Positions 3,063 to 42,466 of a stretch of DNA of 42,466 nucleotides are shown one piece after another; the stretch's first letter is position 1, and every line of letters begins with the position of its first letter. The stretch lies in IMG/VR virus record IMGVR_UViG_3300045988_079499; one strand, written 5' to 3'. The translations under genes and the position numbers were made by a program. The stretch comes from a virus. The notes under the pieces are model-generated. The model was given only the letters and a program-made list of their open reading frames with translations. It ran no database searches and was not told where the DNA came from.

Positions 3063-3164
3063 GATACACTATTGAGAGTTTCATAGAGTTTATAGTTTGC
3101 ACTTGTGTACTAATAATAGATGTGATATACTATATTATATTCAAACGAGAGAGGAAGTAACTAG

Positions 3165-5444
3165 ATGAAAAACATAGCAGAATTTCAAGGTGCTGAAAAA
3201 CTAGCAAGTAAGCTGTTAGAAATATTCGCAGCACTTGCTGGTAATGGGAAAAGCTTTGATCCACTAATAGAAGGTGTTCACCAAATTGTAGTCATTAAAG
3301 CAGAGGAACGTTTAAGCGCTAAAGGTAAAGAAATGAAAGAGATTAAAGTACGTAGCACAAATGATGGACGTGATACTACTTTTTATATTATGAAGTTTCG
3401 CAAACAAGATTGGAAAACGTGGGAAAAGATAGAAGTTGGACAGCAACTGATTATCACTCTAAAATACAGTAATGGTTTCCCTAACGTAACAATTAACCAA
3501 AAAGGAGGAGTTGTTGATAACTTACCTGAGAAACCAAACAAAGCATTAACTAATCAAACTATTTATCTTTATGATATTGAAGTATTTAAAAAAGATAACT
3601 TATTTGTTTTCAGAGATTACTTCACTAAAGAATGGACAGTTATTCATAATGATTTAGATGCGTTACGCAAGTTCTATCTAGCGAATAGAGATTCGTTGTT
3701 TGTAGGTTATAACTCACACTCATATGACTCAAATGTCATGCGCGCTTACTTACAAGGAAAAAACCCATTTCATGTGTCAAAAGCAATCATTGAAAGTGAT
3801 GATAGAGCATTAGCCTATAAAATGTTTGATACTAAGAAAACTCCACTTTTTGGAATGGATTTATATCAAGACAACAGAGGTTTTAGTTTGAAAGAGCATA
3901 GTGCTTTCATGGGTATTAATATTAAAGAAACTGAGGTAGACTTTGATTTAGATAGAGAACTAACAGAAGAAGAACAAGTCTTGAATGAGCTATACTGTAA
4001 AAATGATGTGTTAGCTACTGAAAAACGTTTTGAACAAAACATAGGCATGTTAGTAGCTAAGGCTGCAATTGCCCTATACTTTGGTTTAGATAAAATGGCT
4101 CTATCAATGACAAACGCAAACTTGACTGCTGAACTATTAGGGGCTGAGAAAACACCTGATAGAGGTGATGAACTAGATAAATATGAATTACCAGAAGGAT
4201 TTAAAATTGAGTCAGAGACCATTCGTCAGGCATTTATGACAAATAAGTTTGAGGCGAACGAAAAAGGGCATGCAAGTATTTCATTAGATGTACCACGCAG
4301 AGACGTAACAGAGGTTTTAGGAGTAGGGGGTATACATGGCGCTAAAGAGTCATTTATTCATGTAGGTAAATTCCACGCACGTGACGTAGGTTCACTTTAT
4401 CCAAATACAATGGTTTTATTTGACTACTTATCAAGAAACATCCCAGAAGACAAACGGCATATTTATCAAATGTTACTTGATGAACGTATGGAAGCTAAGT
4501 ATTCTAATAAAGAATTTACTGAAATTAAAGGGGTAAAAATTCCAACCAAACTATTAATTAATGGCTATAAACTACCTTTAAACACTAAATATGGTGCAAT
4601 GGGAGCTGAGTTTAATAAACTGTATGATCCACGTATGCGACTTCTTGTTTGTATCACAGGTCAAATGGCAATGTGGGATTTACTAGAAAAGATTGAAGAC
4701 CATGCTACTATCATTCAATCAAACACAGACGCTCACTATTACATTCCATTTAGTGAAGAAGATGAGAAAGCCATTGATGATATCGCAGATGATTGGATGA
4801 AACGAACAGGATATACCTTAGATGATGATCCTTTTAAAGCCATTTTCCAGAAGGACGTCAATAATTACTTGGCAGTTACATCAGACGGTAAAGTGAAGTT
4901 TAAAGGCGCTATTGGTCTAACAAATGGATTGAAAGTTTCTAAAGCGATTGTGTCAAATGCGTTCATTAATTATGTGGTTGGAGGTAAAGATTATAAAGAG
5001 TTTATCAATGAATGTGATGAACTACGTCAATTCCAAATGATTACTAAAACTGGATGGACGTTTGATGATACTGTAGTACGTGATGTTTATGGTAATGAAC
5101 GAAAAGCCCAAAAGGTGAATCGTACATTTGCAATAAAAGACCCTAACAAAGCTGTTGAAATATTTAAAGTAAAACGTGGAGCTGTTGTTGAAGAGGAAGG
5201 TACTACAATTATTGGTGATGATTCTTACACTAAAGGCTTGCCTAATGCGCCTGAGTATTATGCCATTGACAATGAAGCTATTGGTGAAGGATGGATAACT
5301 ATTGATGATATTGACAAAGAGTACTATATAAACCAGGTGGAAGACCTATTAGTGCTATGGTTTGGTACTAACTGGAAAGAACGGATTGAACAAGCACATA
5401 GTCAAATGAAAGAATTTCCAGAAGTTAAAAATTATATTGATTAA
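3165..5444 (+). CDS. Family-B DNA polymerase with 3'-5' exonuclease and an N-terminal extension of about 130 aa
   Basis: Exo I is YLYDIEVF and Exo II is FVGYNSHSYDSNVM. Pol motif A is RDVGSLYPNTMV (Dx2SLYP), motif B is KLPLNTKYGAMG (Kx3NSxYG), and the motif C region is QSNTDAHYY. Confidence 0.7.
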   Translation: MKNIAEFQGAEKLASKLLEIFAALAGNGKSFDPLIEGVHQIVVIKAEERLSAKGKEMKEIKVRSTNDGRDTTFYIMKFRKQDWKTWEKIEVGQQLIITLKYSNGFPNVTINQKGGVVDNLPEKPNKALTNQTIYLYDIEVFKKDNLFVFRDYFTKEWTVIHNDLDALRKFYLANRDSLFVGYNSHSYDSNVMRAYLQGKNPFHVSKAIIESDDRALAYKMFDTKKTPLFGMDLYQDNRGFSLKEHSAFMGINIKETEVDFDLDRELTEEEQVLNELYCKNDVLATEKRFEQNIGMLVAKAAIALYFGLDKMALSMTNANLTAELLGAEKTPDRGDELDKYELPEGFKIESETIRQAFMTNKFEANEKGHASISLDVPRRDVTEVLGVGGIHGAKESFIHVGKFHARDVGSLYPNTMVLFDYLSRNIPEDKRHIYQMLLDERMEAKYSNKEFTEIKGVKIPTKLLINGYKLPLNTKYGAMGAEFNKLYDPRMRLLVCITGQMAMWDLLEKIEDHATIIQSNTDAHYYIPFSEEDEKAIDDIADDWMKRTGYTLDDDPFKAIFQKDVNNYLAVTSDGKVKFKGAIGLTNGLKVSKAIVSNAFINYVVGGKDYKEFINECDELRQFQMITKTGWTFDDTVVRDVYGNERKAQKVNRTFAIKDPNKAVEIFKVKRGAVVEEEGTTIIGDDSYTKGLPNAPEYYAIDNEAIGEGWITIDDIDKEYYINQVEDLLVLWFGTNWKERIEQAHSQMKEFPEVKNYID

Positions 5445-5448
5445 ACAC

Positions 5449-5510
5449 TTGACACCTCAATTATGAGGTGTTATACTTAATTCATAAGTTAAGAGGAGGA
5501 CGTAAAGAAC
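5449..5510 (+). promoter_or_regulatory. Early promoter-leader cassette (TTGACA-17-TATACT + TAATTCATAAGTTAAGAGGAGGA); the spacer is a 20-bp palindrome
   Basis: TTGACA is at 5449..5454 and TATACT at 5472..5477. The spacer acacctcaattatgaggtgt is an inverted repeat. Confidence 0.6.
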
Positions 5511-6243
5511 ATGAGATACGTAGGAAGTAAAAACAGACTTAGTAAAGAACTAGCACCAATTATTCAAAGTTATATTACAGATGACACAGTAGCATATATA
5601 GAACCATTTGTAGGTGGGGCTAATATGATTGATAAAATAAACCATCATAATAAAATAGGTAGTGATTTACACAAGAATCTAATTGCATTATTAAACTATA
5701 CTAGAGATGATTCATCTTTAATACCTTCAAGAATTTCAGAAGAAGAATACAATCGTGTAAAAGCAAATAGAGATAGCTACGAACCATGGTATGTTGGTTT
5801 AGTTGGATTCTGTGGATCGTTTGGAGCAAAGTATTTTGGTGGATACGCTAGAAACAAAAAAGGAGACGATAGCGGTGAGTGGTCAGCTGGTGCTATCAAA
5901 AATTTAAAAAAAACAATCAACACTGTTTAAAGATGTTACATTTGAATGTAAATCATTTACTGATTATAACCCAACTGATTATAAAAACTGTGTCTTTTAT
6001 TTAGACCCACCATACAGAAAAACATTATCTTATTCAACTGGAAACTTTCCATATGCGGACTTTGATAAGTGGGCTATTGAATTAGCTAAAAACAATACAG
6101 TATTAATTAGTGAATACCAAATGCCAGAAGATAAATTTGAATGTATATGGAGTAAAGACACAAAGGTATCTATTACAAATCAAGGAGATATAAAAAATAA
6201 AAAACGAGTTGAAAAATTATTTAAAGTTAAAGGAGGAAATTAA
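5511..6243 (+). CDS. dam: DNA adenine methyltransferase (D12/Dam class) split by a frameshift in an A8 run at 5906..5913. It would be intact with A9.
   Basis: The N-terminal part (5511..5930) has YIEPFVGGANM (motif I). The +1 frame from 5908 to 6243 has CVFYLDPPY (motif IV). The two frames overlap only within the poly-A tract. Confidence 0.65.
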
Positions 6244-6244
6244 A

Positions 6245-6466
6245 ATGATTAAAATTTATACTAAAAACAACTGCATGCCCTGCAAAATGACTAAGAACTG
6301 GTTTAAAAGAAAAGGACACACCTTTACTGAGGTGAATGTAGATGATAACCTAGAAGGGTTAAATGAATTACTTACTATGAACCTAAGAACACTACCTGTA
6401 GTGTTTAAAGATGATGAGTTTGTGAGTATGGGATTCGCACCAAACAAATGGGAAGAATTTAAGTAG
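6245..6466 (+). CDS. NrdH-like glutaredoxin/thioredoxin-fold redoxin
   Basis: MIKIYTKNNCMPCKMTK contains a CxxC motif. Length is ~73 aa, with RBS aaaggaggaaattaaaATG. Confidence 0.55.
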   Translation: MIKIYTKNNCMPCKMTKNWFKRKGHTFTEVNVDDNLEGLNELLTMNLRTLPVVFKDDEFVSMGFAPNKWEEFK

Positions 6467-26167: not shown

Positions 26168-27940
26168 TTAGTATCCAAAACCAAACTCGCCACTATCTAG
26201 TAAGTCTTGCAATGTTGGTGCGTCATAATCGTGATATTGAGCGTCACTCATGGCATTTATTATGGCATCAAGTGAGTCAATTTTATTCCTATTTATTTGC
26301 TTATCAATCGCAACGCTATCATTGTACTCTTTAATCATTGCATTGTATGCTGCACGATTCAATAAAGGGTTATTGGTGTGCATTACTTCACCTCTACGAA
26401 TTAACTCACGCAGGGCTCTTGTTGGGGATGATAAATAATTTATTTTCTGTGGTACTTCAATTAGTTTTTTAGGGTAGGTTTTACTTAGATTAATTAAAGC
26501 CTTATCCATCATAAATGGATCATAATAAATACCAACCAATTGTAAGTCATTATAATCTATGAAATCACGTATCCAATCACACATTTCTTCTGTATCAATT
26601 AAGCCGTCTTCACGTTGGGAAATATGAATGAGGTTCATTGCCTCATACTGTCTATAGGGTATTTTATCAATTGATTGTTTATGGTCTATACCTCCAACTG
26701 AAGACACAAAACCATGTGTATCTAGTAATAACTTTTGTTCTTCTTCTATTGGGATAATCCATGAAACGGCTGTCATATCTGATGTTCTTGCTAAGTCAAT
26801 GCCAATATATACTTTTCTACCCTTAATATTATAATGATTGGGTGCTTTGACGGAATCCCACTCTTCTTTGGTTACAAAACTATCTTTAGATGATTGTACC
26901 CAAAAATTCATTTCTTTCGTTAACCAACCTGATAAATCCATTTTACCCTTGTATTCATCAAGTGAGTTACGCTTATGCTCCATCATTGAGTCATATGCTT
27001 CTGGTATTTCAAATAGTGGGTTTGATTTTATCCAATTTTCTTCATCATCTACTTCTGATAGACTATCCATTTCCCAACAAAGAGCCAAATAAGCGTCACC
27101 TTTAACCTCTTCATTAAGTAATTTTTCAACGAATGGATATTCTACAGAGTGCATAGGCCCAGTTAGGTTTTTAGTAGTTGTTGAAATTATTAGTATTAAT
27201 CCCTCTAATTGTTGAGATTGAGAGGATTCTAATACTTGAATAATTGCGTCATCTTTAGCTTCACCATATTCATCTAAAATACCGCATAATACATCTAGTC
27301 CATCAAGTGTATCAGCGTCACTTGATAGCGGTTTTACTGTTGATTCGTCACTAGCTTCAATATCATATCTACGAACAGTTGTTCTTTTTTTAACTTCTTT
27401 TGACACACTACGTAACGCAGTTAGCTGTGATTTAAGCATTCTGAAAACGATTCCTGCTTGCTCTTTTGTGTTTGCTGCTGCAACAACTTGACGACTGGCT
27501 GCTGGATTCTTACCAAACAAAAACTCATATAGTGCTATCCCTGAAACCAGTAACGACTTACCATTTTTACGTGCTAGTGAGATGTATGCTTTTCTAAAGC
27601 GTCTAGTATTATCTTTCTTTTTACGCCATCCATAGAGTAATCCAACAATAAATTTCTGAAAGTGGGCTAGTGTTGTGGTTTTGCGAGACTTAGGATCTGG
27701 AAGCATTTCAAGAAATCTAACTGGCGGTATTGCTTCCTCTGGCCTATAAATATATGGATATTTAGGGTCTTTTGAGCGTTCAATATCCTTCTGATGTCTT
27801 TCAATGGCTTTCTGTATTTTTTTACCAACTTTGATTTTAACTTTAATAGGTTTATAATAATCATCTTCTACTATATATTTACGTCCTTCAATCCATCCTG
27901 TTTCAATCAGATTGATATAATCTTGTACAAAGTCTTCCAT
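26168..27940 (-). CDS. terL: Terminase large subunit (Terminase_1 family)
   Basis: 590 aa. It has the RKNGKS Walker-A-like region and lies immediately upstream of the portal. Confidence 0.8.
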   Translation of the reverse strand: MEDFVQDYINLIETGWIEGRKYIVEDDYYKPIKVKIKVGKKIQKAIERHQKDIERSKDPKYPYIYRPEEAIPPVRFLEMLPDPKSRKTTTLAHFQKFIVGLLYGWRKKKDNTRRFRKAYISLARKNGKSLLVSGIALYEFLFGKNPAASRQVVAAANTKEQAGIVFRMLKSQLTALRSVSKEVKKRTTVRRYDIEASDESTVKPLSSDADTLDGLDVLCGILDEYGEAKDDAIIQVLESSQSQQLEGLILIISTTTKNLTGPMHSVEYPFVEKLLNEEVKGDAYLALCWEMDSLSEVDDEENWIKSNPLFEIPEAYDSMMEHKRNSLDEYKGKMDLSGWLTKEMNFWVQSSKDSFVTKEEWDSVKAPNHYNIKGRKVYIGIDLARTSDMTAVSWIIPIEEEQKLLLDTHGFVSSVGGIDHKQSIDKIPYRQYEAMNLIHISQREDGLIDTEEMCDWIRDFIDYNDLQLVGIYYDPFMMDKALINLSKTYPKKLIEVPQKINYLSSPTRALRELIRRGEVMHTNNPLLNRAAYNAMIKEYNDSVAIDKQINRNKIDSLDAIINAMSDAQYHDYDAPTLQDLLDSGEFGFGY

Positions 27941-27995
27941 TTATGTATCCTCCTTTTATACTATTCACTTACATTATAGCACAAAAAAGAACTTC

Positions 27996-28256
27996 CTAGT
28001 CTGGAAGTTCTTTTTTAAATACTTCTAAGTCTTTATATAGATAATCAAAACTTTCTTCAATTTCTGTTAGCATGTAATGTGTTTTTGGTAATCCTTGTGT
28101 AAGTCTCAATGTAATCACTTTGTTAGTATCAACATATTTTTTTAGATTGTCACATTCTGATTTGTATTCTAATAATTCTGATAATGTATAAAAGTGACTT
28201 GTTACTTCTTCTAGTTTTGTTTCGATATTTTCAAGCATTTCGTTTAATGTTGTCAT
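27996..28256 (-). CDS. Hypothetical protein (86 aa) preceded by an early-type leader
   Basis: The - strand reads tgatatacttaattcataagttaagaggaggaaacaacaATG. Confidence 0.45.
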   Translation of the reverse strand: MTTLNEMLENIETKLEEVTSHFYTLSELLEYKSECDNLKKYVDTNKVITLRLTQGLPKTHYMLTEIEESFDYLYKDLEVFKKELPD

Positions 28257-28318
28257 TGTTGTTTCCTCCTCTTAACTTATGAATTAAGTATATCATGGAG
28301 TCTATTATATTTCAACAA
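28257..28318 (-). promoter_or_regulatory. Early-type promoter-leader cassette on the late strand (TTGTTG-17-TGATATACT + TAATTCATAAGTTAAGAGGAGGA)
   Basis: The extended -10 is at 28287..28295. The leader is a match to the + strand early cassettes. Confidence 0.5.
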
Positions 28319-28346
28319 TAAAGATTAAATATTAGAATATTCTAAT

Positions 28347-28383
28347 AAAAAAAAAAGACTCCCTAGTTAGCTAGACTAGGGAG
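28347..28383 (-). terminator. Strong rho-independent terminator (9-bp stem ctccctagt/actagggag plus a T10 run)
   Basis: The - strand reads ctccctagtctagctaactagggagtcttttttttttatt. Confidence 0.8.
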
Positions 28384-28758
28384 GTGTTAGTATCTGCTAG
28401 TATCCACGCCCTACGTTAAGTGTATACTAGCTTTATGTGTGCACGTCATCAAGTAGGGTCATACTATCACACTCTGCGCCAGACACTGTGGCGAGCACTC
28501 ATTTTTAGAGAGGTGGTGTATCCTCTATCCCCGCTGACGGTTAAGGTTTCCAACTCCGTCACAGTATAACCTTAGTCATACGTTTTAGCATACTCTCGCT
28601 TGCGGTGTCACGAGAGGTGTATTAGATTCCACCTATTCATTGATTTACTTAATATGCTTTTGTCAATTGTAGTTGAAAAATTACTGTCACCCTTATTATA
28701 AAATCATACCCGTGATTTTACTTAATTAGTATACCACAACTTTTTAGTTTTGTGTAGG
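28384..28758 (-). ncRNA. Candidate structured non-coding RNA or structured 3' UTR between terS and terL (GC-rich, ORF-free, hairpin-rich)
   Basis: ~375 nt with no ORF of 60 aa or more on either strand. GC content is clearly above the surrounding ~34%. It contains several hairpins and is bounded on its 3' side by a terminator. Strand inferred from the terminator. Confidence 0.3.
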
Positions 28759-29223
28759 TTATCCCTCAAACATTTTCGCAAATGGGTCAAGTACTTCTTT
28801 CTCTTTCTCAGCTGGAAGAATAATCTTCATTCTTGAGTTGATTGTTAGTCCTAAGTCGTTGGTTGCCGTTTTAAGCTCTTTTGAATAGGAGTTCATGGCA
28901 TTAACCCAGGGGTTGGCTTTACCTGTCTCAGGATCAATAGCGCCCATCTGAGCCACCTTCTCTACTGCCTCTGCGTATAAATAATTATAGTTGCAATATC
29001 TAATGACTGTATTTACATCTAACTCACTAATAGGCAGGTCTCCCACATATGCTCCAATGCGATCCCATTCATTGAATGCTTGTGGCAATAGACCTGGTGG
29101 ATAAAAACTGAAGTCCAGCTTTTCATAATTGTAAAGTAGTTCTTCCTCCTTCTCACGCGCTTCTCGTTGTTGAGTGGTCAAGTTACCACTTTGAGCGTTT
29201 AATAGTTTTCGTGGTCTTGCCAT
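28759..29223 (-). CDS. terS: Terminase small subunit (P27 / Terminase_4 family)
   Basis: Starts MARPRKLLNAQSGNLTTQQREAREKEEELLY with RBS aaaggaggagtgataatATG. It lies downstream of the terminase-associated HNH gene. Confidence 0.7.
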   Translation of the reverse strand: MARPRKLLNAQSGNLTTQQREAREKEEELLYNYEKLDFSFYPPGLLPQAFNEWDRIGAYVGDLPISELDVNTVIRYCNYNYLYAEAVEKVAQMGAIDPETGKANPWVNAMNSYSKELKTATNDLGLTINSRMKIILPAEKEKEVLDPFAKMFEG

Positions 29224-29768: not shown

Positions 29769-30152
29769 TTACCTACCTCTATTTTTCCAACTGTAGCTAT
29801 GTTCTTCCTTGTTGTGACACTCGTAACAGATTGACTCTAAGTTATTTAAATCAAGTCTATGTTTCCATCCATTTGGACTTCTTAATTCTATATTATGGTG
29901 AACCATATCAGCGTTGGTGTACTTGCCTTGTGCTAAGCATACCTCGCAGAGTGGTTGCTCCATTAGCTTAGCTTTACGTGCATTCCTCCATTGAGTACTA
30001 TGATAGAACTGACTGTACTTCTTGTTGTCGTCATTATATCGTACATGTTTATTGTATTGGCTATTGTTATATCCACTATGCTCCGTACAATAGCGCTCTG
30101 GTAGCGTGACATAGTTGCGGCATGAAGCCACTGCACACTTGCGTTGTGGCAT
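29769..30152 (-). CDS. HNH endonuclease (terminase-associated, zinc-ribbon type)
   Basis: CAVASCRNYVTLPERYCTEH, then ...CEVCLAQGKYTNADMVHHNIEL...NLESICYECHNKEEH. Adjacent to terS. Confidence 0.8.
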   Translation of the reverse strand: MPQRKCAVASCRNYVTLPERYCTEHSGYNNSQYNKHVRYNDDNKKYSQFYHSTQWRNARKAKLMEQPLCEVCLAQGKYTNADMVHHNIELRSPNGWKHRLDLNNLESICYECHNKEEHSYSWKNRGR

Positions 30153-31136: not shown

Positions 31137-31618
31137 ATCTCCTCCTCTTTGTTTCTATTATATCATATATAAGGGATACTGTGTGAGTTAAGTAAACCAG
31201 TTATTAGTGACAAAAACTCAGCCTAAAATGGTCATTTTGTCACTAAATTGCTTGTTTTTGTCAGCGTTTTGTCACTAATTTTGACACCTAAAAACGCTGT
31301 AACCCTTGATAAATCTACATTCTTATTTTTATAATGACAAAATGACAAAATATTATATATATTAATTAAAAAATAAAGTTACTACATTATAATGTAGTAT
31401 TACAGTATATATAAAGAGTATGGTACTTTTTTTGTCATTTTGTCATTAAACTGGTCTCTTACTTAGAGTATCAAGGAATAGAGCGATTTTAAAAAAGTCA
31501 TTTTAGTGTCATATAGTGACAAAAACGCAAAATTAGTGACATTTTTTAATCTTTTCTATTGACGTTGGTTTCTATACATGCTATACTTAGTTCATAAGAT
31601 AAAGAGGAGGAAACAATT
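31137..31618. promoter_or_regulatory. Divergent control region and putative origin: iterons TTAGTGACAAAA / TGACAAAA in both orientations around an AT-rich core with a 20-bp palindrome. It holds the - strand promoter (TGATATAAT) and the + strand early promoter (TTGACG-17-TATACT).
   Basis: TTAGTGACAAAA at 31204 (+), 31235 (rc), 31267 (rc), 31515 (+) and 31533 (+). TGACAAAATGACAAAA at 31335..31350, with its reverse complement at 31431..31446. Palindrome tactacattataatgtagta at 31380..31399. Confidence 0.6.
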
Positions 31619-31855
31619 ATGACACACGAAAAATATGACGAACTACAAAAGAAAATGGACAAGCTTTACAGCGATTTTATTGATCTAGCAGCTGACACTG
31701 AATCAGCAGGCGAAGATATGAGCAAAGTTTCAGAATGGGTAGACAACAACATTCAACCAATTATTAACTGGGTAAAAGATCATGACGCTGAAGAAAAAGT
31801 TCTAGCTGAACTACAAGATGACTATAATAAATTAAAGGAGATGTTAGCATGTTAG
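31619..31855 (+). CDS. Hypothetical early protein (78 aa)
   Basis: ORF after the conserved leader. Confidence 0.45.
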   Translation: MTHEKYDELQKKMDKLYSDFIDLAADTESAGEDMSKVSEWVDNNIQPIINWVKDHDAEEKVLAELQDDYNKLKEMLAC

Positions 31856-33455: not shown

Positions 33456-33533
33456 ATATTAAAGAAAAGTATAGCACAAATGAAAAGTTTGTGCTATACT
33501 TAGTACATATCAGATGAGGGAGGACTTAATGGA

Positions 33534-35120
33534 ATGAATGAATTAACGAAAATAGACTATTCAGCACCAGTTGAAGAGTTATTACCTGTTTCAAATAAAC
33601 ACTTTCCAAGTGAGGAGTTTGTGGATTTTAATTCAGAACTAGGACGAATGTACTACGGTGGGAAAGATGGTACACAAGCAAAATTTGAAATCCAACAAGA
33701 ATTGTTTATTGATAAATTTAATCAGTTAGCCTATGTGTATGCACACCCTAACTTAAACGCTCCATATGTGTATAACGCAGACACACGTATCTGGTCTGAG
33801 GTAAACCTAGGTAGTTACAAATATGCTGATTGGTACTTTGAGAACATTTTAGCGCCAAAATTTACACCACAATTCAGAAATCCAGAATTTGGGAATGAAA
33901 TTCGTAAAGAAATGAAGAAACTAGCACCTGAGTTAGCTAATCGTTCCATGACACGTGGGGAACATGCACCATTGGGTGACAACCCTAACCCAAACATTAT
34001 TGCGTTTGAAAATGGCACATATGACTTTAAAACCAATGATATACGTGAGACCAGGTTAGAAGACTACCACACACTCCAATTACCCTATCCGTTAATTAAG
34101 ACAGATGAAACAGATGAACTATTGGCTAAACAATGGATTGACTATCTATTAAAAGATCAAGCACAGACATTATATGAGTATATTGGGTATATGTATTATA
34201 GAGAGTACAAATATCAATCAATTTTGTACCTCTTAGGTAATGGGTCAAACGGTAAGTCTTACGTAGGTGGCTTTATCATGAATAAATTAATTGGTTTCAA
34301 AAACAGCTCAGCAGTTGGTCTAGACAGCTTAGCAGATAAAAACAATCGTTTTGACAAAGCTTCATTACACCATAAATTATTGAACTTTGAAGCGGATTCA
34401 AGTGCCAACTTTGTGAAGGGTACTGAAACACTGAAAAAGCTTTCAGGAGGTCTTGACGCCGTTCATGCTGAGAAAAAGGGTAAAGATGCCTTTAGTTTTA
34501 CCAACTATGCGAAATTGATGTTCTCAATGAATGAACTACCATCCTTTAATGACCGCACCAATGGATGGTATAGACGGATTTTAATATTAAATTTCAATAC
34601 CAATCTTGATACACCAGAAGCACGTGAACGCATTAATGAGTTTAACAAACAACGTGAAGAACGTGAGTCAAAAGAGCAGCTGGGTAAATTTGCCTGGTTC
34701 TGTATTCAGCAATTCAAAAAGATTTTAGACGCTGGTACAAATGGTGAAAACCCATTCACAGAAACTGAAGATATGATTGCGTTCAAAAAAGCTTATATTG
34801 AATCCAACGATCCATCTAAAGAGTTTTTGAGTGAAGTACCTGTAATTGTGGAAGATAAAGAAGGTACTGTTAACCTAACATTATTGAAGAATATCTTTAA
34901 CGTGTACACAAAAGAGAATAATATTAACAAATCAATGAACTGGCGTACCATGAAAGAATTGCTGCTGAAGCAAGGGTTTGAAGAAAAACGTACAAGTAAA
35001 GTACGTGTACTCACTGGTCTAAAAATCGCACGTAACGGAGACAATGAATCCATTAGACCTTATTTAATGAACGCACTAGCAGGGACAGAGTACGTGAACA
35101 TTTTTAACGATGTATTGTAG
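33534..35120 (+). CDS. DNA primase-helicase, P4/D5 family (D5_N plus an SF3 helicase P-loop)
   Basis: LLGNGSNGKSYVGGFIMNKL (Walker A), then ...LLNFEADS. 528 aa. Confidence 0.7.
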   Translation: MNELTKIDYSAPVEELLPVSNKHFPSEEFVDFNSELGRMYYGGKDGTQAKFEIQQELFIDKFNQLAYVYAHPNLNAPYVYNADTRIWSEVNLGSYKYADWYFENILAPKFTPQFRNPEFGNEIRKEMKKLAPELANRSMTRGEHAPLGDNPNPNIIAFENGTYDFKTNDIRETRLEDYHTLQLPYPLIKTDETDELLAKQWIDYLLKDQAQTLYEYIGYMYYREYKYQSILYLLGNGSNGKSYVGGFIMNKLIGFKNSSAVGLDSLADKNNRFDKASLHHKLLNFEADSSANFVKGTETLKKLSGGLDAVHAEKKGKDAFSFTNYAKLMFSMNELPSFNDRTNGWYRRILILNFNTNLDTPEARERINEFNKQREERESKEQLGKFAWFCIQQFKKILDAGTNGENPFTETEDMIAFKKAYIESNDPSKEFLSEVPVIVEDKEGTVNLTLLKNIFNVYTKENNINKSMNWRTMKELLLKQGFEEKRTSKVRVLTGLKIARNGDNESIRPYLMNALAGTEYVNIFNDVL

Positions 35121-35360: not shown

Positions 35361-35408
35361 AGAAAGTTGACTAAAGCAGTTGACTTTCTTTTTCTATCAT
35401 GGTATTAT
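35361..35408 (+). promoter_or_regulatory. Terminator (agaaagt/actttct plus a T-run) overlapping an early promoter (TTGACT-17-TATTAT)
   Basis: The terminator's 3' arm and T-run form the -35 (35380..35385) and spacer of the promoter. The -10 is at 35403..35408. Confidence 0.5.
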
Positions 35409-35434
35409 TAATTCATAGAGAGGAGGAAGTAATA

Positions 35435-35647
35435 ATGTATATTGCAGAGATTATAAATCCTGAAAAATGCGAATTAGAGTACAACTCAGAGACATTCAGT
35501 AGTCAGGAGGAGGCAGAAGCTTATATAAATGAAGTATGTGAAGATAGGCATGGGTTAGAGGGTGTAGTAATATCAATACTGATAGAAAAACAAAATTTTA
35601 GTGGAACTAACATTTTGACACGTGCAGACGTTGTATACCACACGTAA
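35435..35647 (+). CDS. Hypothetical acidic protein (70 aa)
   Basis: RBS agagaggaggaagtaataATG. Confidence 0.4.
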   Translation: MYIAEIINPEKCELEYNSETFSSQEEAEAYINEVCEDRHGLEGVVISILIEKQNFSGTNILTRADVVYHT

Positions 35648-36353: not shown

Positions 36354-36681
36354 GCTAGTTGTGAAATATCTAAAAGAAAAAGGAGCATTGGTAAACGTCA
36401 ACACCGCCAACATATTTGACAAAGTTGGGCGTTCTGATGTAGAATGTTGTTATAAAGGGCATTGGATTAGTTTAGAATTGAAGGTGGGTAACTATCAGCC
36501 AGATCCTTTACAGATCACGTACTTGCAAAAAATACGTGATGCAGGTGGCTTTGGGCTAATTCTACGTGACACACTTCAAGAACTCATGGTTTTGTTATCT
36601 TGTATTGACAATGGTATTGAAAGGCAATACAAGCAACCAGAGTTGCCAGAAATTAAAGTGGAGGAGATTACTTATGACTAG
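36331..36681 (+). CDS. VRR-NUC domain nuclease (PD-(D/E)xK)
   Basis: GRSDVECCYKGHWISLELKVGNYQPDPLQITYLQKIRDAGGFGLIL fits the D..E.K...Q pattern. It lies upstream of the SNF2 helicase. Confidence 0.55.
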   Translation: MKESQFSKLVVKYLKEKGALVNVNTANIFDKVGRSDVECCYKGHWISLELKVGNYQPDPLQITYLQKIRDAGGFGLILRDTLQELMVLLSCIDNGIERQYKQPELPEIKVEEITYD

Positions 36682-37177
36682 AGAAATTTGGAAAGATATT
36701 GAAGGATATGAAGGACTGTATCAAGTGAGTGACTTGGGAAGAGTTAAAAGAGCTACAACCGGTAGGATTTTAAAAGGTATGATTAGGGGAAGTGGTTATT
36801 TACAAGTTGATTTATCTAAACAAGGAGCTAACTCTAACAAGTATATCCATCGTTTAGTAGCTCAAGCATTCATACCAAATCCTGAAAACAAACCGCAAGT
36901 AAATCATATTGACGAAGATAAAACAAATAATATGGTTTCTAATCTTGAATGGTGTACAGCTAAAGAGAACATAAACCATGGTACGCGTATTGAAAGAGCT
37001 ATCATATCTAATCAAAAGAAAGTCAAAGCGATAGATATCGCAAATGGCGAATACAATTACTATGAATCAATAATTGAATGTGCAAGACAGTTAGATCTTA
37101 ATCAAGGCAACATTTGTAAGTGTTTAAAAGGTAAACGTAAGACATTAGGGGGATACACTTTTGAATATGCAAAATAA
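36674..37177 (+). CDS. HNH homing endonuclease (NUMOD4 + HNH_3), copy 2, inserted between the VRR-NUC and SNF2 genes
   Basis: IWKDIEGYEGLYQVSDLGRV, then ...NHIDEDKTNNMVSNLEWCTAKEN. About 55-60% identical to copy 1. Its ATG overlaps the VRR-NUC stop (ATGACTAG). Confidence 0.85.
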   Translation: MTREIWKDIEGYEGLYQVSDLGRVKRATTGRILKGMIRGSGYLQVDLSKQGANSNKYIHRLVAQAFIPNPENKPQVNHIDEDKTNNMVSNLEWCTAKENINHGTRIERAIISNQKKVKAIDIANGEYNYYESIIECARQLDLNQGNICKCLKGKRKTLGGYTFEYAK

Positions 37178-38465
37178 AATAGGTAAAATAGAACTTCTTC
37201 CACATCAAGTTGAAGCTATTAAATATTGGAAAGAAAAACCGCTTGATCTGTCAGACGTTGGGGTAGGTAAAACGTTTGCAGCACTTGGTTCCTATTCAGC
37301 TTCTGGCTGTGAGAAGTTATTAGTAATATGTTTGGCACCTAAAGTAAACGACTTTGTTGAAGATGCTGAATTAATGGATATTGAGATTACCCCACTTAAT
37401 CATGGGACAAAGAAAAATATAGAGCTTTTATCAAACTCCAAGCGGGTAGCAATCAGTTTTGAAAGTTCTTGGAGAGTAAAAGAATTATTGAAATGGGTGG
37501 ATAAGAATACTTTTATTATTATTGATGAAGCTCACAAAACGTCTGTTAGCACATCAAAAGTAACCAAGTTTGCTATGCAGTTATGTAAGAAGACTGAAAA
37601 TGTACGTTTATTGACAGCAACCCCAGTTAGCAACGGAAAATTAGAAAACTATTATCCGTTGCTATATATGATAAACGTGTTCAGAAAGCCTAAAAAAGAG
37701 TTTGAAGAGCTATTTGTCATAAAACAAATGCGTCAAATGGGAAGCGCTAGATTCCTCCAAATCACTGGCTATCGCAATGAACATTTACTTCAACAGATGA
37801 TTGACGAAGCAAGTGTGAACTATAAACGTGATAAAGGCTATTTACCACAAGATTACGTCTACAAAACGAAGAAGCCTGCAATGTACAATAAGTTGAAGAA
37901 GAATAGAATTTATAAAGATGACTTTGACAACATTGTGGAATTAGATAACGCTAGTAATCTATTTAACAGACTAAGACAGGTATCACATGGTTTTCTTGAA
38001 GGTGTACTTAAACCAGTATCCAAAGAACCGTTTGAACGTTTAGAAGCTATACTTGAGACACACCATAACGAACGTGTAGTGATTTTCTATAATTACAAAG
38101 CAGAATATTTAATGCTAAGAATGTTACTAGACAAACTAAAACGACCATATGGTGTGTACAATGGCAGTATGAAGGAACTAGATAACTTCAAACAAAATGA
38201 AAATGGTGTAGTAATAGCACAATACAAGTCCGCTTCAACTGGGATAAATGATTTTGTAATTAGTAATGTGACAGTTTTCAATAGCATGCCTCTAAGCTCT
38301 ACAGAATATTTACAAGCAAAAGGTAGAACTGACAGACATGGGCAAGAGAAAACACCACTGTATTATCATATTGTGCCAGATACACCAATTGAGAAAAAGA
38401 TCTTTGAGACAGTAACAAATGGAAAAGATTTTACAAATGAAATGATGGAGGAGAGTGTAAAATGA
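37161..38465 (+). CDS. SNF2/DEAD-like helicase
   Basis: LPHQVEAI..., the sequence DVGVGKTFAA (motif I), IIIDEAHK (DEAH box), and QAKGRTDRHGQ (motif VI). Confidence 0.7.
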   Translation: MNMQNKIGKIELLPHQVEAIKYWKEKPLDLSDVGVGKTFAALGSYSASGCEKLLVICLAPKVNDFVEDAELMDIEITPLNHGTKKNIELLSNSKRVAISFESSWRVKELLKWVDKNTFIIIDEAHKTSVSTSKVTKFAMQLCKKTENVRLLTATPVSNGKLENYYPLLYMINVFRKPKKEFEELFVIKQMRQMGSARFLQITGYRNEHLLQQMIDEASVNYKRDKGYLPQDYVYKTKKPAMYNKLKKNRIYKDDFDNIVELDNASNLFNRLRQVSHGFLEGVLKPVSKEPFERLEAILETHHNERVVIFYNYKAEYLMLRMLLDKLKRPYGVYNGSMKELDNFKQNENGVVIAQYKSASTGINDFVISNVTVFNSMPLSSTEYLQAKGRTDRHGQEKTPLYYHIVPDTPIEKKIFETVTNGKDFTNEMMEESVK

Positions 38466-38617
38466 AAAAGAGATATAAAGGCTACTTTAAGAAACCAACA
38501 TATACTACACGTGATATCATAATCAAAAAGAAAATGATGGAGTCGTTCAACTTTAAAGAGAAACCGCGTGTTGGATCATGGGTAAACACTTATAAAAAAT
38601 ATATAAATAAATTGTAG
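38462..38617 (+). CDS. Small basic protein (51 aa)
   Basis: ATGA overlap with the helicase stop. Confidence 0.3.
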   Translation: MKKRYKGYFKKPTYTTRDIIIKKKMMESFNFKEKPRVGSWVNTYKKYINKL

Positions 38618-38624
38618 AAAACAG

Positions 38625-38682
38625 TTGACACCCCTTAATTGGGGTGGTATACTTAATTTATAAGTTAAGAGGAGGAAGTTAA
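38625..38682 (+). promoter_or_regulatory. Early promoter-leader cassette (TTGACA-17-TATACT + TAATTTATAAGTTAAGAGGAGGA); the spacer contains the palindrome caccccttaattggggtg
   Basis: The -35 is at 38625..38630 and the -10 at 38648..38653. Confidence 0.6.
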
Positions 38683-39423
38683 ATGAAAGAATTAAGACTG
38701 AAAAAGAATGGTAAAGCCCCACTAGTGGCTGGAGCATTTGATGGAGAAGATTATAAACTGATTCAAACGTGGGTGCAAGAAGGTGGAAACGTTGGCACAC
38801 TCACCGGTTCAGCGAGTGGTATTGTAGTCATTGACATTGATAATCACAATGGAGTAGATGGTCTTGGCAACTTAAAAGTTTTTTTAGAAATGTATGACAT
38901 TAAGTTACCTAAGACTAAAGTAGTTAAGACTCCAAGTGGTGGACTACACTACTACTTTAAATTAGATGAGAAATACAATGAAACGCAATTCATTCAAAAC
39001 CATTCCCAACTAGAAGGCGTTGACTTTCAAACTCATGGTAGATATGTAGTAGCACCACCTAGTCAAATTGATGGTAAATATTATGAAGTAGTACGTGACG
39101 TAGAAATAGCAGAACTACCTGAGAAATGGTTAGAGATGTTCACAGATAAAACGATTACAAAAAAGAACAAAAAGAGAGAACGCAGATGGACGGCAACCTT
39201 ATTAGGTGATATAATTGCAGGTAGTGGTGAGGGTGGACGGAATATCTGGCTCACCACTCAGATTGGTAAATTATTTGCAACTGGTTTAAATCATGATGAG
39301 GTGCGTGTATGGTCTCTATATGTAAACCAGATTGGCTGTAATCCACCATTATCAGAGGATGAAGTAATGCAAACATATGAGAGCGTACGTAAGCGTGAAA
39401 TAAGAAGAATGGAGGAAGACTAA
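38683..39423 (+). CDS. Bifunctional primase-polymerase (AEP PrimPol N-terminal domain)
   Basis: GIVVIDIDNHNG (the DxD motif), SGGLHYYF, and GRYVVAPPS. Confidence 0.65.
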   Translation: MKELRLKKNGKAPLVAGAFDGEDYKLIQTWVQEGGNVGTLTGSASGIVVIDIDNHNGVDGLGNLKVFLEMYDIKLPKTKVVKTPSGGLHYYFKLDEKYNETQFIQNHSQLEGVDFQTHGRYVVAPPSQIDGKYYEVVRDVEIAELPEKWLEMFTDKTITKKNKKRERRWTATLLGDIIAGSGEGGRNIWLTTQIGKLFATGLNHDEVRVWSLYVNQIGCNPPLSEDEVMQTYESVRKREIRRMEED

Positions 39424-39909: not shown

Positions 39910-39938
39910 TTGACAAGTAAGACACTATATGATATTAT
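39910..39938 (+). promoter_or_regulatory. Early promoter TTGACA-17-TGaTATTAT
   Basis: The -35 is at 39910..39915. The extended -10 spans 39930..39938 (TG at 39930..39931, hexamer TATTAT at 39933..39938). Confidence 0.5.
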
Positions 39939-39969
39939 AAATATATAAACAAAGAGAGGATTTGATATA

Positions 39970-40209
39970 ATGACTACAGTTGAAGAATTAGAAAATACAG
40001 CACGTTACAAAACCAACTCAGGAAAACAATTATTTGATATTTTTGAAGACGACCTATTGACATACGAGCAGGTAACGGGTTTCTACTTAGGTAATACAAT
40101 TAAATATTTAAAACGTTATAAACAAAAGAATGGAGTTGAAGATCTGAAAAAAGTGAAAGTTTATGTAGATCAATTAATTAAATTGGAGGAAAAACATAAT
40201 GAGATTTGA
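39970..40209 (+). CDS. DUF3310-like phage protein (putative)
   Basis: LLTYEQVTGFYLGNTIKYLKRY, then ...DLKKVKVYVDQLI. Confidence 0.35.
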   Translation: MTTVEELENTARYKTNSGKQLFDIFEDDLLTYEQVTGFYLGNTIKYLKRYKQKNGVEDLKKVKVYVDQLIKLEEKHNEI

Positions 40210-40669
40210 ACCATTAAATGAGCCTTACGATATGTATGCCATAACAGATGAAGGTCATGTGTTTCATTTAGACAAAGAACGATATGAAACTGAACTAGTT
40301 GATCCAAAGAATGGAAAAATGTATGTAGTACTTGAAGGTTCACATACAAAGTCACGTAAATTCTACGTCTCTCAATTAGTAGCAGACATGTTTGTTAAAA
40401 ACGAGCATAACTTAGGGTACTTATATTTTAAAGATGGTAACGTACAAAACAGCCACCACACTAATATTGGTTACGCCATTAATCCAAAAGAAGGGGTAGA
40501 ACGTGTGGCACGTCCCTTCAGAAAGAAAGTAGAGCCAAAAAGGCATGCATTAATTGTAGCTATTGGAAAAGCGTGTGAGCAAAAAAACTGGAAAGAAGCC
40601 AATACGCTTGGTAGAGAACTTTGGGAATTAGAAGGAGCAAAATACGCAGACAGAAATAAATTAGTATAG
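40199..40669 (+). CDS. HNH_3-type endonuclease-like protein, copy 3 (divergent)
   Basis: YFKDGNVQNSHHTNIGY resembles the H-DGN..NN...NL motif. The N-terminal YAITDEGHVFHL region is NUMOD4-like. Confidence 0.4.
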   Translation: MRFEPLNEPYDMYAITDEGHVFHLDKERYETELVDPKNGKMYVVLEGSHTKSRKFYVSQLVADMFVKNEHNLGYLYFKDGNVQNSHHTNIGYAINPKEGVERVARPFRKKVEPKRHALIVAIGKACEQKNWKEANTLGRELWELEGAKYADRNKLV

Positions 40670-40683
40670 TTGGAGGCAAACAA

Positions 40684-41439
40684 ATGTCAGAATTTGAATT
40701 TGATGTACATTACACAGGAAGTAAGGGTAACAGTGTCTCAATTTATTATGAGAATATGGGGTTCCTAATTGATATTGGAAAGCCATACAAATACATTGAG
40801 CCATATTTATATGATAAACAATTTGTATTGATTACGCATAAGCACCAGGATCACCTTGTATATACAACATATAAAAAGATTAGAGAAAACTTTCCCCACA
40901 TTAAAATATTATCTAACGAAACTGTTAACAATGAACTAATAAAACGCAAACTTAGTAGTGTAGACATAACATTCAAAGATGATTTCCAGTTTAAAATTGG
41001 AGATGTAAAATTTACAACACTTCAAAATTATCATGGTGCAGCTGAAGACTACACAGAAACACATGGTTTTATCCTAGAGAGTCCTTTGCAAAACTTAATC
41101 TATGCCACTGATTTGAGTACTTTAATAGATTATGAAACTTATCTATTGACAAATGAGTTAAAACTTGATATTATTCTTTTAGAAGCTAATTATGACCCAC
41201 AAGTCATTGGCTTATCAGAGTATATGAAAATTCACAGTGGATATGATACATTTAACAACGGATCATACCGTCACTTGAGTACTGTAGATAGAGAGGAGTT
41301 TGTTACTAAGTTCAAGAAACCAGACGCTGTAGATGTTGAGCTTCACATTTCAGAGCGGTATCGTAGTTTTGACGGATTGGTTAGATTAGAAAAAGGAAAA
41401 ATTACTCAAAAAGATGTTGACAATTATTTAAAGAGATGA
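40684..41439 (+). CDS. Metallo-beta-lactamase-fold hydrolase
   Basis: VLITHKHQDHL matches the HxHxDH motif. 251 aa. Confidence 0.55.
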   Translation: MSEFEFDVHYTGSKGNSVSIYYENMGFLIDIGKPYKYIEPYLYDKQFVLITHKHQDHLVYTTYKKIRENFPHIKILSNETVNNELIKRKLSSVDITFKDDFQFKIGDVKFTTLQNYHGAAEDYTETHGFILESPLQNLIYATDLSTLIDYETYLLTNELKLDIILLEANYDPQVIGLSEYMKIHSGYDTFNNGSYRHLSTVDREEFVTKFKKPDAVDVELHISERYRSFDGLVRLEKGKITQKDVDNYLKR

Positions 41440-41468
41440 TATAGTTAATATATAGAGGAGGAAGAATA

Positions 41469-41648
41469 ATGAACTTAAAATTAGATATAACGTGGAGAGA
41501 ATCACAAGTAGTATTAGAAACAATAAATGCATGGATATCAAAATATGGGTATGACAATATGTCAGACGAAATGAAAGAACTTACAGCCAAATGTCTTGCA
41601 TTTGACAAACAAATATTAGATGAATTTGGAGTGGAGGAAATCAAATGA
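41469..41648 (+). CDS. Hypothetical protein (59 aa)
   Basis: RBS agaggaggaagaataATG. Confidence 0.35.
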   Translation: MNLKLDITWRESQVVLETINAWISKYGYDNMSDEMKELTAKCLAFDKQILDEFGVEEIK

Positions 41649-42261: not shown

Positions 42262-42466
42262 ACTATCAATACAAGCTACAGGTAAACATGAAATACAGTT
42301 CATTGGTTACGAAAAAACACTTGAAGACGTAAGGAGGTTAGCTGAACGAATGAAAGAACAAGAAGTGAATGAGGAAAACATTATAGAGAATAAAAAACTT
42401 CTTGCTGAAATTCGTAAAGAAATTAAAAAATTAGATTCAGAACGATTAGCGGTTAAGCGTGAAATC
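42251..42466 (+). CDS. 5' portion of the wrap-around CDS that continues at 100..693
   Basis: ATG at 42251. The frame runs without a stop to the window end and into position 1. Confidence 0.6.
   Translation, partial: MAFELSIQATGKHEIQFIGYEKTLEDVRRLAERMKEQEVNEENIIENKKLLAEIRKEIKKLDSERLAVKREI
42368..42466. repeat. Second copy of the 99-bp terminal repeat
   Basis: Exact duplicate of 1..99. Confidence 0.9.

Follow-up and report, generated by a model that had tools for sequence, protein, structure and literature searches.

Early-promoter families that are read by unmodified host RNA polymerase are well known from phages T4, T5 and T7 (class A) and from SPO1 and SP82 of Bacillus. In Bacillus, a strong Shine–Dalgarno (SD) sequence near the 5′ end also stabilises messenger RNA, as in the purine-rich, SD-like 5′ stabiliser of SP82 early RNA and the ‘Stab-SD’ leaders of aprE and cryIIIA. 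Other conserved phage elements have a different layout. The start-associated sequences (SAS) and extended SAS (ESAS) of Cluster K mycobacteriophages, which Pope et al. are said to have described in 2011, reportedly take their position from the start codon and do not belong to a promoter. Morons, a concept said to go back to Juhala et al. 2000 and Hendrix et al. 2000, are reportedly promoter–gene–terminator units between the genes of phage late operons. In T4-like myoviruses, promoter early stem-loop (PeSL) cassettes, found near insertions and deletions, combine AT-rich upstream DNA, a stem–loop, a σ70 early promoter, an SD sequence and a start codon (Arbiol et al. 2010, PMC2839356; Comeau et al. 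2014, PMC4122927). Here we describe a cassette that runs unbroken from a −35 hexamer to a start codon and recurs before many genes of a virulent Enterococcus siphophage, the complete genome of which is the 42,466-bp virus record IMGVR_UViG_3300045988_079499 (‘the window’, meaning the whole stretch of DNA analysed).

A cassette of fixed geometry

An earlier note, made from the letters of this DNA alone, had proposed that one promoter–leader cassette is reused upstream of many genes, and this is what we find. Seven near-identical copies are confirmed in position and orientation, and a profile built from the seven recovers all of them (E-values from 4e-17 to 2e-11). The note had counted about eight; those seven stand, and an eighth, weaker copy at 41417–41471, which the same profile detects (E = 2e-4), had been missed. 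Each copy is laid out as TTGAC(A/T), 17 bp ending in TGn, TAtAcT, TA(A/G)TTCATAAG, a strong SD sequence and ATG, and the SD and ATG terminate every strong copy. In the focal copy (5449–5513, + strand; profile E = 6e-17), the −35 TTGACA occupies 5449–5454, the 17-bp spacer 5455–5471, ending in TGT, and the −10 TATACT 5472–5477; the discriminator TAATTC (5478–5483), a predicted +1 at A5484 and the SD sequence GAGGAGG (5493–5499) lead to the ATG at 5511.

Similarity of this kind could be trivial, the product of AT-rich intergenic DNA, consensus hexamers and a strong ribosome-binding site (RBS). The genome has a G+C content of 33–38%, and the 11-mer TARTTCATAAG alone is weakly enriched in the window (9 matches against 3.9 expected from dinucleotide-preserving shuffles, ~2.3-fold). 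Against this, the exact 23-mer leader with up to three mismatches has 4 matches where shuffles predict 0.00, and the promoter skeleton TTGAC-N15-TGNTANNNT has 9 against 0.21, all nine on the + (coding) strand of the early rightward arm.

Conservation was measured in 68 copies, 67 of them unique, from the window and ten related Enterococcus phages (11 genomes). The closest database relatives are IME-EFm5, RG1, BUCT630, Aramis, dArtagnan, IME-EFm1 and EF36P1, which share 84–90% identity with the window over mosaic segments, with coverage of either query at most ~76% for all of them. A search of related genomes for the leader, as the earlier note had advised, was productive: each relative carries 5–9 copies, mostly at syntenic operon starts. 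Across the 67 unique copies, the 14 nt after the −10 hold 1.12 bits per position, compared with 1.69 in the −35, 1.26 in the −10, 0.55 in the spacer and 0.41 upstream. The 11–14 nt past the −10 thus have nearly the information content of the −10, and the conserved C and G within this AT-rich stretch reach 1.67 and 1.05 bits. Paralogues with unrelated spacer types are 78% identical in the block of 11 nt after the −10, but only 31% in the spacer and 39% upstream. An RBS and AT bias are insufficient to explain this disparity between block and spacer, which points to selection, shared descent alone being inadequate. Two leaders from one genome resemble each other no more than leaders from different genomes do (permutation p = 0.53), so gene conversion within genomes is not the cause of their conservation, and concerted evolution was rejected as its source. 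Shuffles, information content and paralogue identities together refute the trivial explanation, which we give practically no chance of being right. An RBS plus AT bias was also the outcome that the earlier note had named as fatal to its proposal; it was checked and does not account for the leader, and the claim that conservation goes beyond a shared RBS is upheld.

The geometry of the cassette is rigid. TTGAC is invariant or nearly so, the minus-strand copy discussed below having TTGAAA. The spacer is exactly 17 bp in all extracted copies, with T at −15 in 100% and G at −14 in 99%. Within the −10, TAnnnT is invariant; position 5 of the consensus TATACT is C in 69% of copies, whereas the textbook hexamer has A there. 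TA(A/G)TTCATAAG follows directly with zero indels in the 67 copies, and CAT lies at +6 to +8 after the −10 in 54 of them (YAT in 62). The SD core starts 15–17 nt after the −10 in 65 of 67, and the start codon is 8–10 nt further on. A variable spacing between block and SD, which would favour a function in DNA only, was considered and dropped, because the spacing holds to ±1 nt. By their spacers, the cassettes form five syntenic types that are conserved in position across relatives: H1 immediately behind the DNA polymerase stop codon, H2 before the Prim-Pol gene, K before the TM2-domain gene, T after a 230-aa open reading frame (ORF; 972–1664) and after the primase module, and S at the start of the rightward arm. 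The focal copy is of the H1 type. The cassette is an ordinary kind of element that is conserved unusually widely and rigidly.

A predicted host promoter fused to a short leader

The copies have, in sequence, the features of housekeeping σA (σ70-type) promoters of Firmicutes with an extended −10: a −35 near TTGACA, a spacer of 17 ± 1 bp with TG, and T-12, A-11 and T-7. We consider it likely that each is a strong host σA early promoter fused to a fixed, unstructured 5′ untranslated region (5′UTR) of ~24 nt (predicted length 22–27 nt, mode 24, in the 67 copies). We infer promoter activity, start site, early timing, the role of the spacer hairpins described below and constraint on the block from the DNA letters, and the label ‘early’ from promoter type and gene content. 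In E. faecalis and E. faecium, 96–98% of mapped start sites have the motif tgnTAtaaT and only ~4% a canonical −35 (PMC7724050), which would place the cassettes in a rare full-consensus class that is independent of activators.

Such a cassette would be portable and would give host RNA polymerase and ribosomes all they need for expression. Its promoter would belong to the strongest σA class, with A-rich upstream DNA, TTGAC(A/T), the exact 17-bp spacer, the extended −10 TGn and TAtAcT. The AT-rich 6-nt discriminator TAATTC is predicted to function as DNA only, upstream of +1. The ‘23-nt leader’ of the earlier note is therefore conserved as claimed, but its first 6 nt, a quarter of its length, would be promoter DNA. 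Initiation is predicted at the A of CAT, 7 nt past the −10, which agrees with the classical start-site consensus in both sequence and position. The predicted transcript, AUAAGUUAAGAGGAGGA-N7-10-AUG, would carry a strong SD from ~10 nt past its 5′ end, and a ribosome seated over the entire short leader would protect that end from decay. Host RNA polymerase would fire the cassettes on DNA entry, with no need of a phage factor, to give about ten short, highly expressed transcription units on the replication arm. Pfam searches found no RNA polymerase, sigma factor or helix–turn–helix (HTH) protein among 40 window ORFs, many small ones of which match no family at all, and this is consistent with dependence on the host polymerase. 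The host machinery would also constrain the invariant block after the −10, with open-complex stability, start-site choice, promoter escape and ribosome coverage of the short leader as candidate constraints.

Several points weigh against this interpretation. Literature searches turned up no start-site, timing or promoter-strength data on this phage group; the one enterococcal phage transcriptome that they yielded, of VPE25, concerns an unrelated 132-ORF phage and is without start sites (PMC7064774). The family −10 is TATACT and not TATAAT, unlike what simple selection for maximum strength predicts, and the need of a host for exactly TAATTCATAAG is left without explanation. Neither exact nor degenerate leader motifs were found in representative Enterococcus genomes, where looser matches and the 11-mer were not searched. 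The H1 and H2 hairpins that we describe below failed a terminator scan and have no proper U-tract, and a single stem pair in them covaries. Finally, the start site is spanned by a weak 5+5 palindrome (consensus ACTTA-ATTCA-TAAGT), of the sort to which a dimeric DNA-binding protein could attach.

That palindrome brings in a different explanation, namely that the start-site block ACTTAATTCATAAGT is an operator for a phage or host DNA-binding regulator that switches all early promoters together, off or on. The block is as conserved as the −10 and overlaps the predicted +1, the palindrome would account for the C of TATACT, which pairs with the G of TAAGT, and the late-type promoters of the minus strand have neither a −35 nor the block. 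However, position 5 of the −10 and the G of TAAG do not covary, copies of the K and T types break the palindrome, and a 5+5 palindrome is statistically unremarkable in an AT-rich region of 25 nt. The block is also present in phages that have no plausible regulator in common with the window; that no HTH or other DNA-binding family was found in 40 window ORFs is a weak objection, given the many small ORFs without a family. We regard the operator as improbable.

The signal could instead be read in RNA. The earlier note had offered the leader as a target for a translational or RNA-binding regulator or an RNase, and the first ~10 nt of the transcript, AUAAGUUAAG, would be the part that such a partner reads. 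Transcribed ATAAG(T/A)TA is conserved beyond the SD, and a common 5′ end on all cassette mRNAs would provide a handle for co-regulation or for protection from 5′-dependent decay. Yet TAATTC, equally conserved, lies upstream of the predicted +1 and would be inactive in RNA. The predicted leaders are unstructured in six of the seven window copies (minimum free energy 0 to −2.3 kcal/mol, the same as shuffled sequences), and Rfam at gathering thresholds has 0 matches anywhere in the window, on which grounds a structured cis-regulatory RNA (riboswitch, leader or attenuator) was rejected. The occurrence of the leader across phage families speaks against a phage-encoded partner: since unrelated phages without a common candidate carry it (Efmus3 was compared), a specific partner would more likely be a host component. 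The proposal of the note is not borne out by these results, and a dedicated RNA-level signal seems to us quite improbable. We return to the host-read promoter with its short leader as our working interpretation.

A hairpin nested in the promoter spacer

Two of the cassettes carry a hairpin inside the 17-bp spacer. H1, ACACCTCA-ATTA-TGAGGTGT (5452–5471, + strand), lies in the focal cassette, 8 nt past the DNA polymerase stop codon (5444), and the RNA of 5440–5492 folds with −14.8 kcal/mol (z = −4.3). H2, ACACCCC-TTAATT-GGGGTG(G), lies in the cassette at 38625 and folds with −13.6 kcal/mol. Both follow the general form ACACC[T/C]C(N)-loop-(N)G[A/G]GGTGT, in which the stem borrows the ACA of the −35 and the TGT of the extended −10. 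The hairpin is found in 10 of 118 unique promoter cores (all loci), with varying loops and one stem pair that changes from T-A through T.G to C-G.

The transcript of the cassette itself is predicted to start downstream of the hairpin, and the hairpin follows the upstream stop codon by 8 nt, so action in read-through RNA is the simplest account. The H1 and H2 hairpins probably act there as a terminator or 3′-end stabiliser of the upstream transcript, which would make these two copies composite terminator–promoters; alternatively, they may be palindromic operators. A candidate hairpin in the K-type spacer at 2449 was rejected, as it is not kept in orthologues. In the genus Efquatrovirus, some cassettes have a different G+C-rich hairpin, GGGGTTGA...TCAGCCCC, which overlaps the −35 and does not fill the spacer (IME-EF4, at 3356, 7465 and 7728); it is a second way to fuse a terminator-like hairpin with a promoter.

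The cassette in unrelated phages

The distribution of the cassette extends well past the close relatives, with 149 phage records matched by the 69-nt cassette and 196 by the 42 nt of −10 plus leader. The ~40-kb siphophages among them include the genus Efquatrovirus. Podophage Efmus3 (Rountreeviridae) has two closely similar copies, one of them directly after the DNA polymerase gene, and cassettes just as close occur in the 58-kb phage SE, the Herelleviridae myophage 156, the 68-kb E. hirae phage EH802P1 and Leuconostoc phages. By tblastn, Efmus3 shares with the window proteins only HNH homing endonucleases, a DUF3310 fragment, a lysin domain and one marginal 45-aa match, and Leuconostoc phage Lmd1 shares only distant replication and terminase homologues, with DNA polymerase at 24% protein identity. 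A common phage-encoded regulator is therefore unlikely: Pfam found no HTH protein, sigma factor or RNA polymerase in 40 window ORFs, and Efmus3 and Lmd1 share no plausible candidate with the window. A leader common to unrelated phages thus points to host machinery or to horizontal spread.

Host genomes were rejected as the origin of the cassette on these searches: the exact 22-mer has 0 matches in representative genomes of 185,579 species; a degenerate leader pattern has 10, none of them in Enterococcus or other Lactobacillales and the number, by a rough estimate, at or below chance; and a plasmid collection gave marginal matches to the SD only, with no real cassette. We also found no description of the cassette in the literature searched, including searches for the motif as a text string.

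Cross-family copies repeat the pattern of the paralogues, with the leader conserved and the spacer not, and host constraint and horizontal spread are therefore indistinguishable on this evidence. As a speculation, and one that we think will more probably fail than hold, TATACT-TAATTCATAAG(W)TAA-SD could be a ‘promoter commons’ of virulent Enterococcus and Leuconostoc phages. The cassette may have been exchanged horizontally among Rountreeviridae, Herelleviridae and several siphophage lineages, or it may have arisen by convergence under an undescribed, sequence-specific requirement of transcription, translation or RNA decay in Lactobacillales that acts downstream of the −10. Either version, if true, would provide a recognisable early-gene signature across enterococcal phages.

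A moron and other possible joints

The minus-strand copy (28254–28318; E = 1e-14) has its −35 TTGAAA at 28315–28310, its −10 TATACT at 28292–28287 and its predicted +1 at 28280. The earlier note had placed it upstream of an early gene; its actual place is among the packaging genes, in the terS–terL spacer, where it serves an inserted gene unit as promoter. Alignment with six relatives delimits this moron-like insertion to 27983–28346 (− strand), consisting of a 31-nt flank, the cassette, an 86-aa ORF (28256–27996) and its own terminator (28011–27983). It is bounded by the T-run of an upstream terminator (28383–28359) and by the extended −10 promoter of terL (27983–27973). The whole unit is present in EF36P1 and missing at one exact point in IME-EFm5, dArtagnan, IME-EFm1, RG1 and BUCT630; in these five, the terminator and its T-run are followed by the extended −10 promoter of terL, and the flanks are intact. 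Because promoter, ORF and terminator are present or absent as a block, the minus-strand copy is the promoter of a moron. Homologues of the 86-aa ORF occur only in EF36P1-3 among 50,697 phage records; the ORF has no PHROG match, and its sole Pfam match falls below the curated cutoff.

The terS–terL spacer as a whole (27940–28760, − strand, ~800 nt) contains blocks that are kept in all relatives and several TGnTATA(A/C)T boxes, and may hold a non-coding RNA, a cos site or a packaging signal. In a published dArtagnan × Aramis hybrid, this spacer contained a recombination patch (PMC11210271).

A self-sufficient, repeated module is able to move along with genes, as with the moron in the late operon, and the cassettes would also offer short homology for illegitimate or paralogous crossovers, which in our interpretation would be a side effect and not the primary role. 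The earlier note had proposed the stronger version, a mobile regulatory cassette or recombination linker in the PeSL sense, in which repeats persist while genes are shuffled around them; this is compatible with promoter function, and the PeSLs of T4-like phages act so (PMC4122927). Individual cases support it. The moron is a clean promoter–ORF–terminator insertion in the window and EF36P1 only, and its 5′ flank TTTAATCTTT also accompanies the S-type cassette at 31559 and, in phage 9184, a copy that occupies a third location. RG1 and KEN18 have an S-type 5′ half before a particular 3′ half and its MTNTV gene; in IME-EFm1, a T-type 5′ half stands before that 3′ half and gene, which makes the cassette a chimera. 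At the junction of the permuted primase module there is a cassette, and RG1 has an extra cassette and a 71-aa gene, the two flanking cassettes being identical in their 3′ halves and different in their 5′ halves. The presence of the cassette in phage families with almost no common genes also fits a linker.

The breakpoint counts do not. In blastn comparisons with ten relatives, a test of low power, homology transitions between −90 and +15 of early gene starts averaged 5.0 of 10 relatives at 6 cassette starts and 4.24 at 25 others (one-sided Mann–Whitney p = 0.24), the early arm being mosaic at almost all gene boundaries. Most copies keep their syntenic places in the relatives, a sign that operon starts are inherited vertically; leaders are not homogenised within genomes, and ~30 nt of near-identity is a short substrate for homologous recombination. 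What remains of the linker proposal is thus the moron, the chimeric cassettes and the permuted modules, without an enrichment of breakpoints. Cassettes can act as joints, but a joint role as their purpose is without support here, and we hold the linker to be a doubtful, though possible, explanation of the family.

Genes behind the copies and the surrounding genome

Strand composition and ORFs divide the genome into two arms. The rightward arm (31.6–42.5 kb, continuing at 1–7.2 kb) carries replication and nucleotide-metabolism genes and many small ORFs, and the leftward arm (7.2–31.1 kb) carries lysis, tail, head and packaging genes. The record is circularly permuted, as it appears from a DUF1351 gene that is seemingly cut by the window ends (1–693 and 42262–42466, with 100–693 as its C-terminal part).

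The S-type cassette (31559–31621, +; E = 9e-16; predicted +1 at 31594) is the first promoter of the rightward early arm, borders the divergent control region and drives the ORF at 31619–31855. Next along the arm, a T-type cassette at 35380–35437 (+; E = 2e-13; −10 TATTAT; predicted +1 at 35415) has its leader shortened to TAATTCATAGAGAGGAGGA and drives a 70-aa ORF that starts at 35435. The H2-type cassette (38625–38685, +; E = 4e-17; predicted +1 at 38660) begins 8 nt past the stop codon of the ORF at 38462–38617 and drives the Prim-Pol gene (38683–39423). The weaker eighth copy (41417–41471, +), TTGACA-17-TGATATAGT-TAATATATAGAGGAGGA-ATG, overlaps the 3′ end of the MBL-hydrolase gene and drives the ORF at 41469–41648. 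Past the origin of the record, a second T-type cassette (1694–1755, +; E = 6e-15; −10 TAACAT; predicted +1 at G1729) drives an I-HmuI-like HNH homing endonuclease gene (1753–2262), and the K-type cassette (2449–2511, +; E = 2e-11; −10 TAACGT; predicted +1 at 2484) overlaps the 3′ end of the ORF at 2262–2474 and drives the TM2-domain gene (2509–2841). The focal H1-type cassette drives a truncated D12 Dam methyltransferase gene (5511–5930; Pfam). Of the 253 profile positions, its 139-aa product reaches only the N-terminal 88; the gene is followed by ~300 nt of non-coding DNA (5511–6245 in all), and RG1 has a full-length version of 240 aa at the same position; the window copy is probably a truncated pseudogene.

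Other sites resemble the cassette in part. The two degenerate copies that the earlier note had listed are promoter-like, but their leaders differ. One, placed there at ~3098, is a degenerate relative at 3123–3167 (+), with an extended −10 TGATATACT, a weak −35 and a different leader, before the DNA polymerase gene (3165–5444); the other (39910–39972, +) has the full skeleton TTGACA-17-TGATATTAT and drives the DUF3310 gene (39970–40209). A partial relative at 33490–33536 (+), TGCTATACT then TAGTACATA and an SD, keeps only the −10 and part of the leader, is without a good −35 and lies before the primase gene (33534–35120). The −10 of that promoter is enclosed by a 14-bp perfect inverted repeat (33467–33501; AAGTATAGCACAAA-N7-TTTGTGCTATACTT), which could be a regulatory hairpin or operator. 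The skeleton TTGACA-17-TGATATTAT also occurs at 41146–41174 within the MBL-hydrolase gene, where neither a leader nor a start codon follows. This site could be fortuitous or an internal promoter; being intragenic and leaderless, it was not counted as a member of the family.

The minus strand has promoter-like sites of another kind at ~15593, 21454, 24181, 27973–27983 and 31165. These have an extended −10 TGnTATAAT only, without a −35, precede structural, packaging and leftward small-gene operons, and by their sequence seem to form a distinct promoter class that is probably later or activator-dependent. Between the arms, the divergent control region (31137–31618) holds an iteron-like array of TTTGTCAY, a motif with 12 occurrences in the window, 8 of the 12 within 31207–31523, in both orientations and often in tandem doublets. 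The array surrounds an AT-rich stretch and a palindrome at ~31370–31405 and is a candidate replication origin or regulator-binding array.

Four free-standing genes are HNH-type endonuclease-like (1753–2262, 36674–37177, 40199–40669 and 29769–30152 on the − strand). Two have I-HmuI-like domains, the gene at 40199 is assigned by weak similarity to an HNH gene only, and the minus-strand gene has a plain HNH domain. One of the four stands directly behind a cassette. Homologues with 38–50% amino-acid identity occur in Efmus3 and Lmd1, and these genes are possible vehicles for the movement of flanking DNA between phage families.

Discussion

The cassette marks predicted early transcription units in a group of phages that is used against vancomycin-resistant enterococci and whose annotated records list few or no promoters. 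It also offers a compact, self-contained module for strong expression in the engineering of enterococcal phages and their hosts. Less ordinary than the promoter itself are the near-invariant discriminator–leader block, the hairpin nested in the promoter spacer and the spread over unrelated phages of the same host. Were the block a host requirement, it would reveal an unrecognised promoter-proximal or 5′-end determinant in enterococci; were it the product of horizontal spread, regulatory DNA would move between phage families independently of genes.

Like the early promoters of T4, T5, T7, SPO1 and SP82, the cassettes are many above-average, host-type promoters predicted to drive early genes. 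They differ in forming one conserved unit of fixed geometry that stretches unbroken from −35 to start codon, and in their cross-family distribution. With SAS they share a conserved motif just upstream of many start codons that exceeds what an RBS needs; here, however, the block is anchored to the −10, without a single indel among 67 copies, and extends across the predicted transcription start. The minus-strand copy, its 86-aa ORF and its terminator resemble a moron in being present or absent en bloc with intact flanks in relatives. This applies to one copy only, the others being syntenic operon promoters of the replication arm. Classical morons, moreover, are known from temperate lambdoid phages and are expressed from the prophage, whereas this phage is virulent.

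By analogy, the PeSL cassettes appear to be the nearest described counterpart, although the cassette of the window stands outside the PeSL family. Both are small, conserved, multi-copy modules of AT-rich upstream DNA, a near-consensus host early promoter, an SD sequence and a start codon, and both populate plastic early regions rich in small ORFs. Some copies of each have a stem–loop (here a putative terminator), and some lie beside ORF insertions, replacements or permutations. The association of PeSLs with indels is matched here by individual cases and not by enrichment (p = 0.24; n = 6 versus 25 starts, low power). PeSLs belong to phages of Gram-negative hosts and this cassette to a ~42-kb siphophage of a Gram-positive host, and their sequences are unrelated. 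In PeSLs the stem–loop precedes the −35; here it is found in 2 of ~8 copies, inside the 17-bp spacer. A near-invariant discriminator, start site and leader have not been described for PeSLs, and the present cassette is common to unrelated phage families of the same host. With these differences, it extends the PeSL idea, that promoter, terminator and SD cassettes serve as building joints of genomes, to small siphophages of Gram-positive bacteria.

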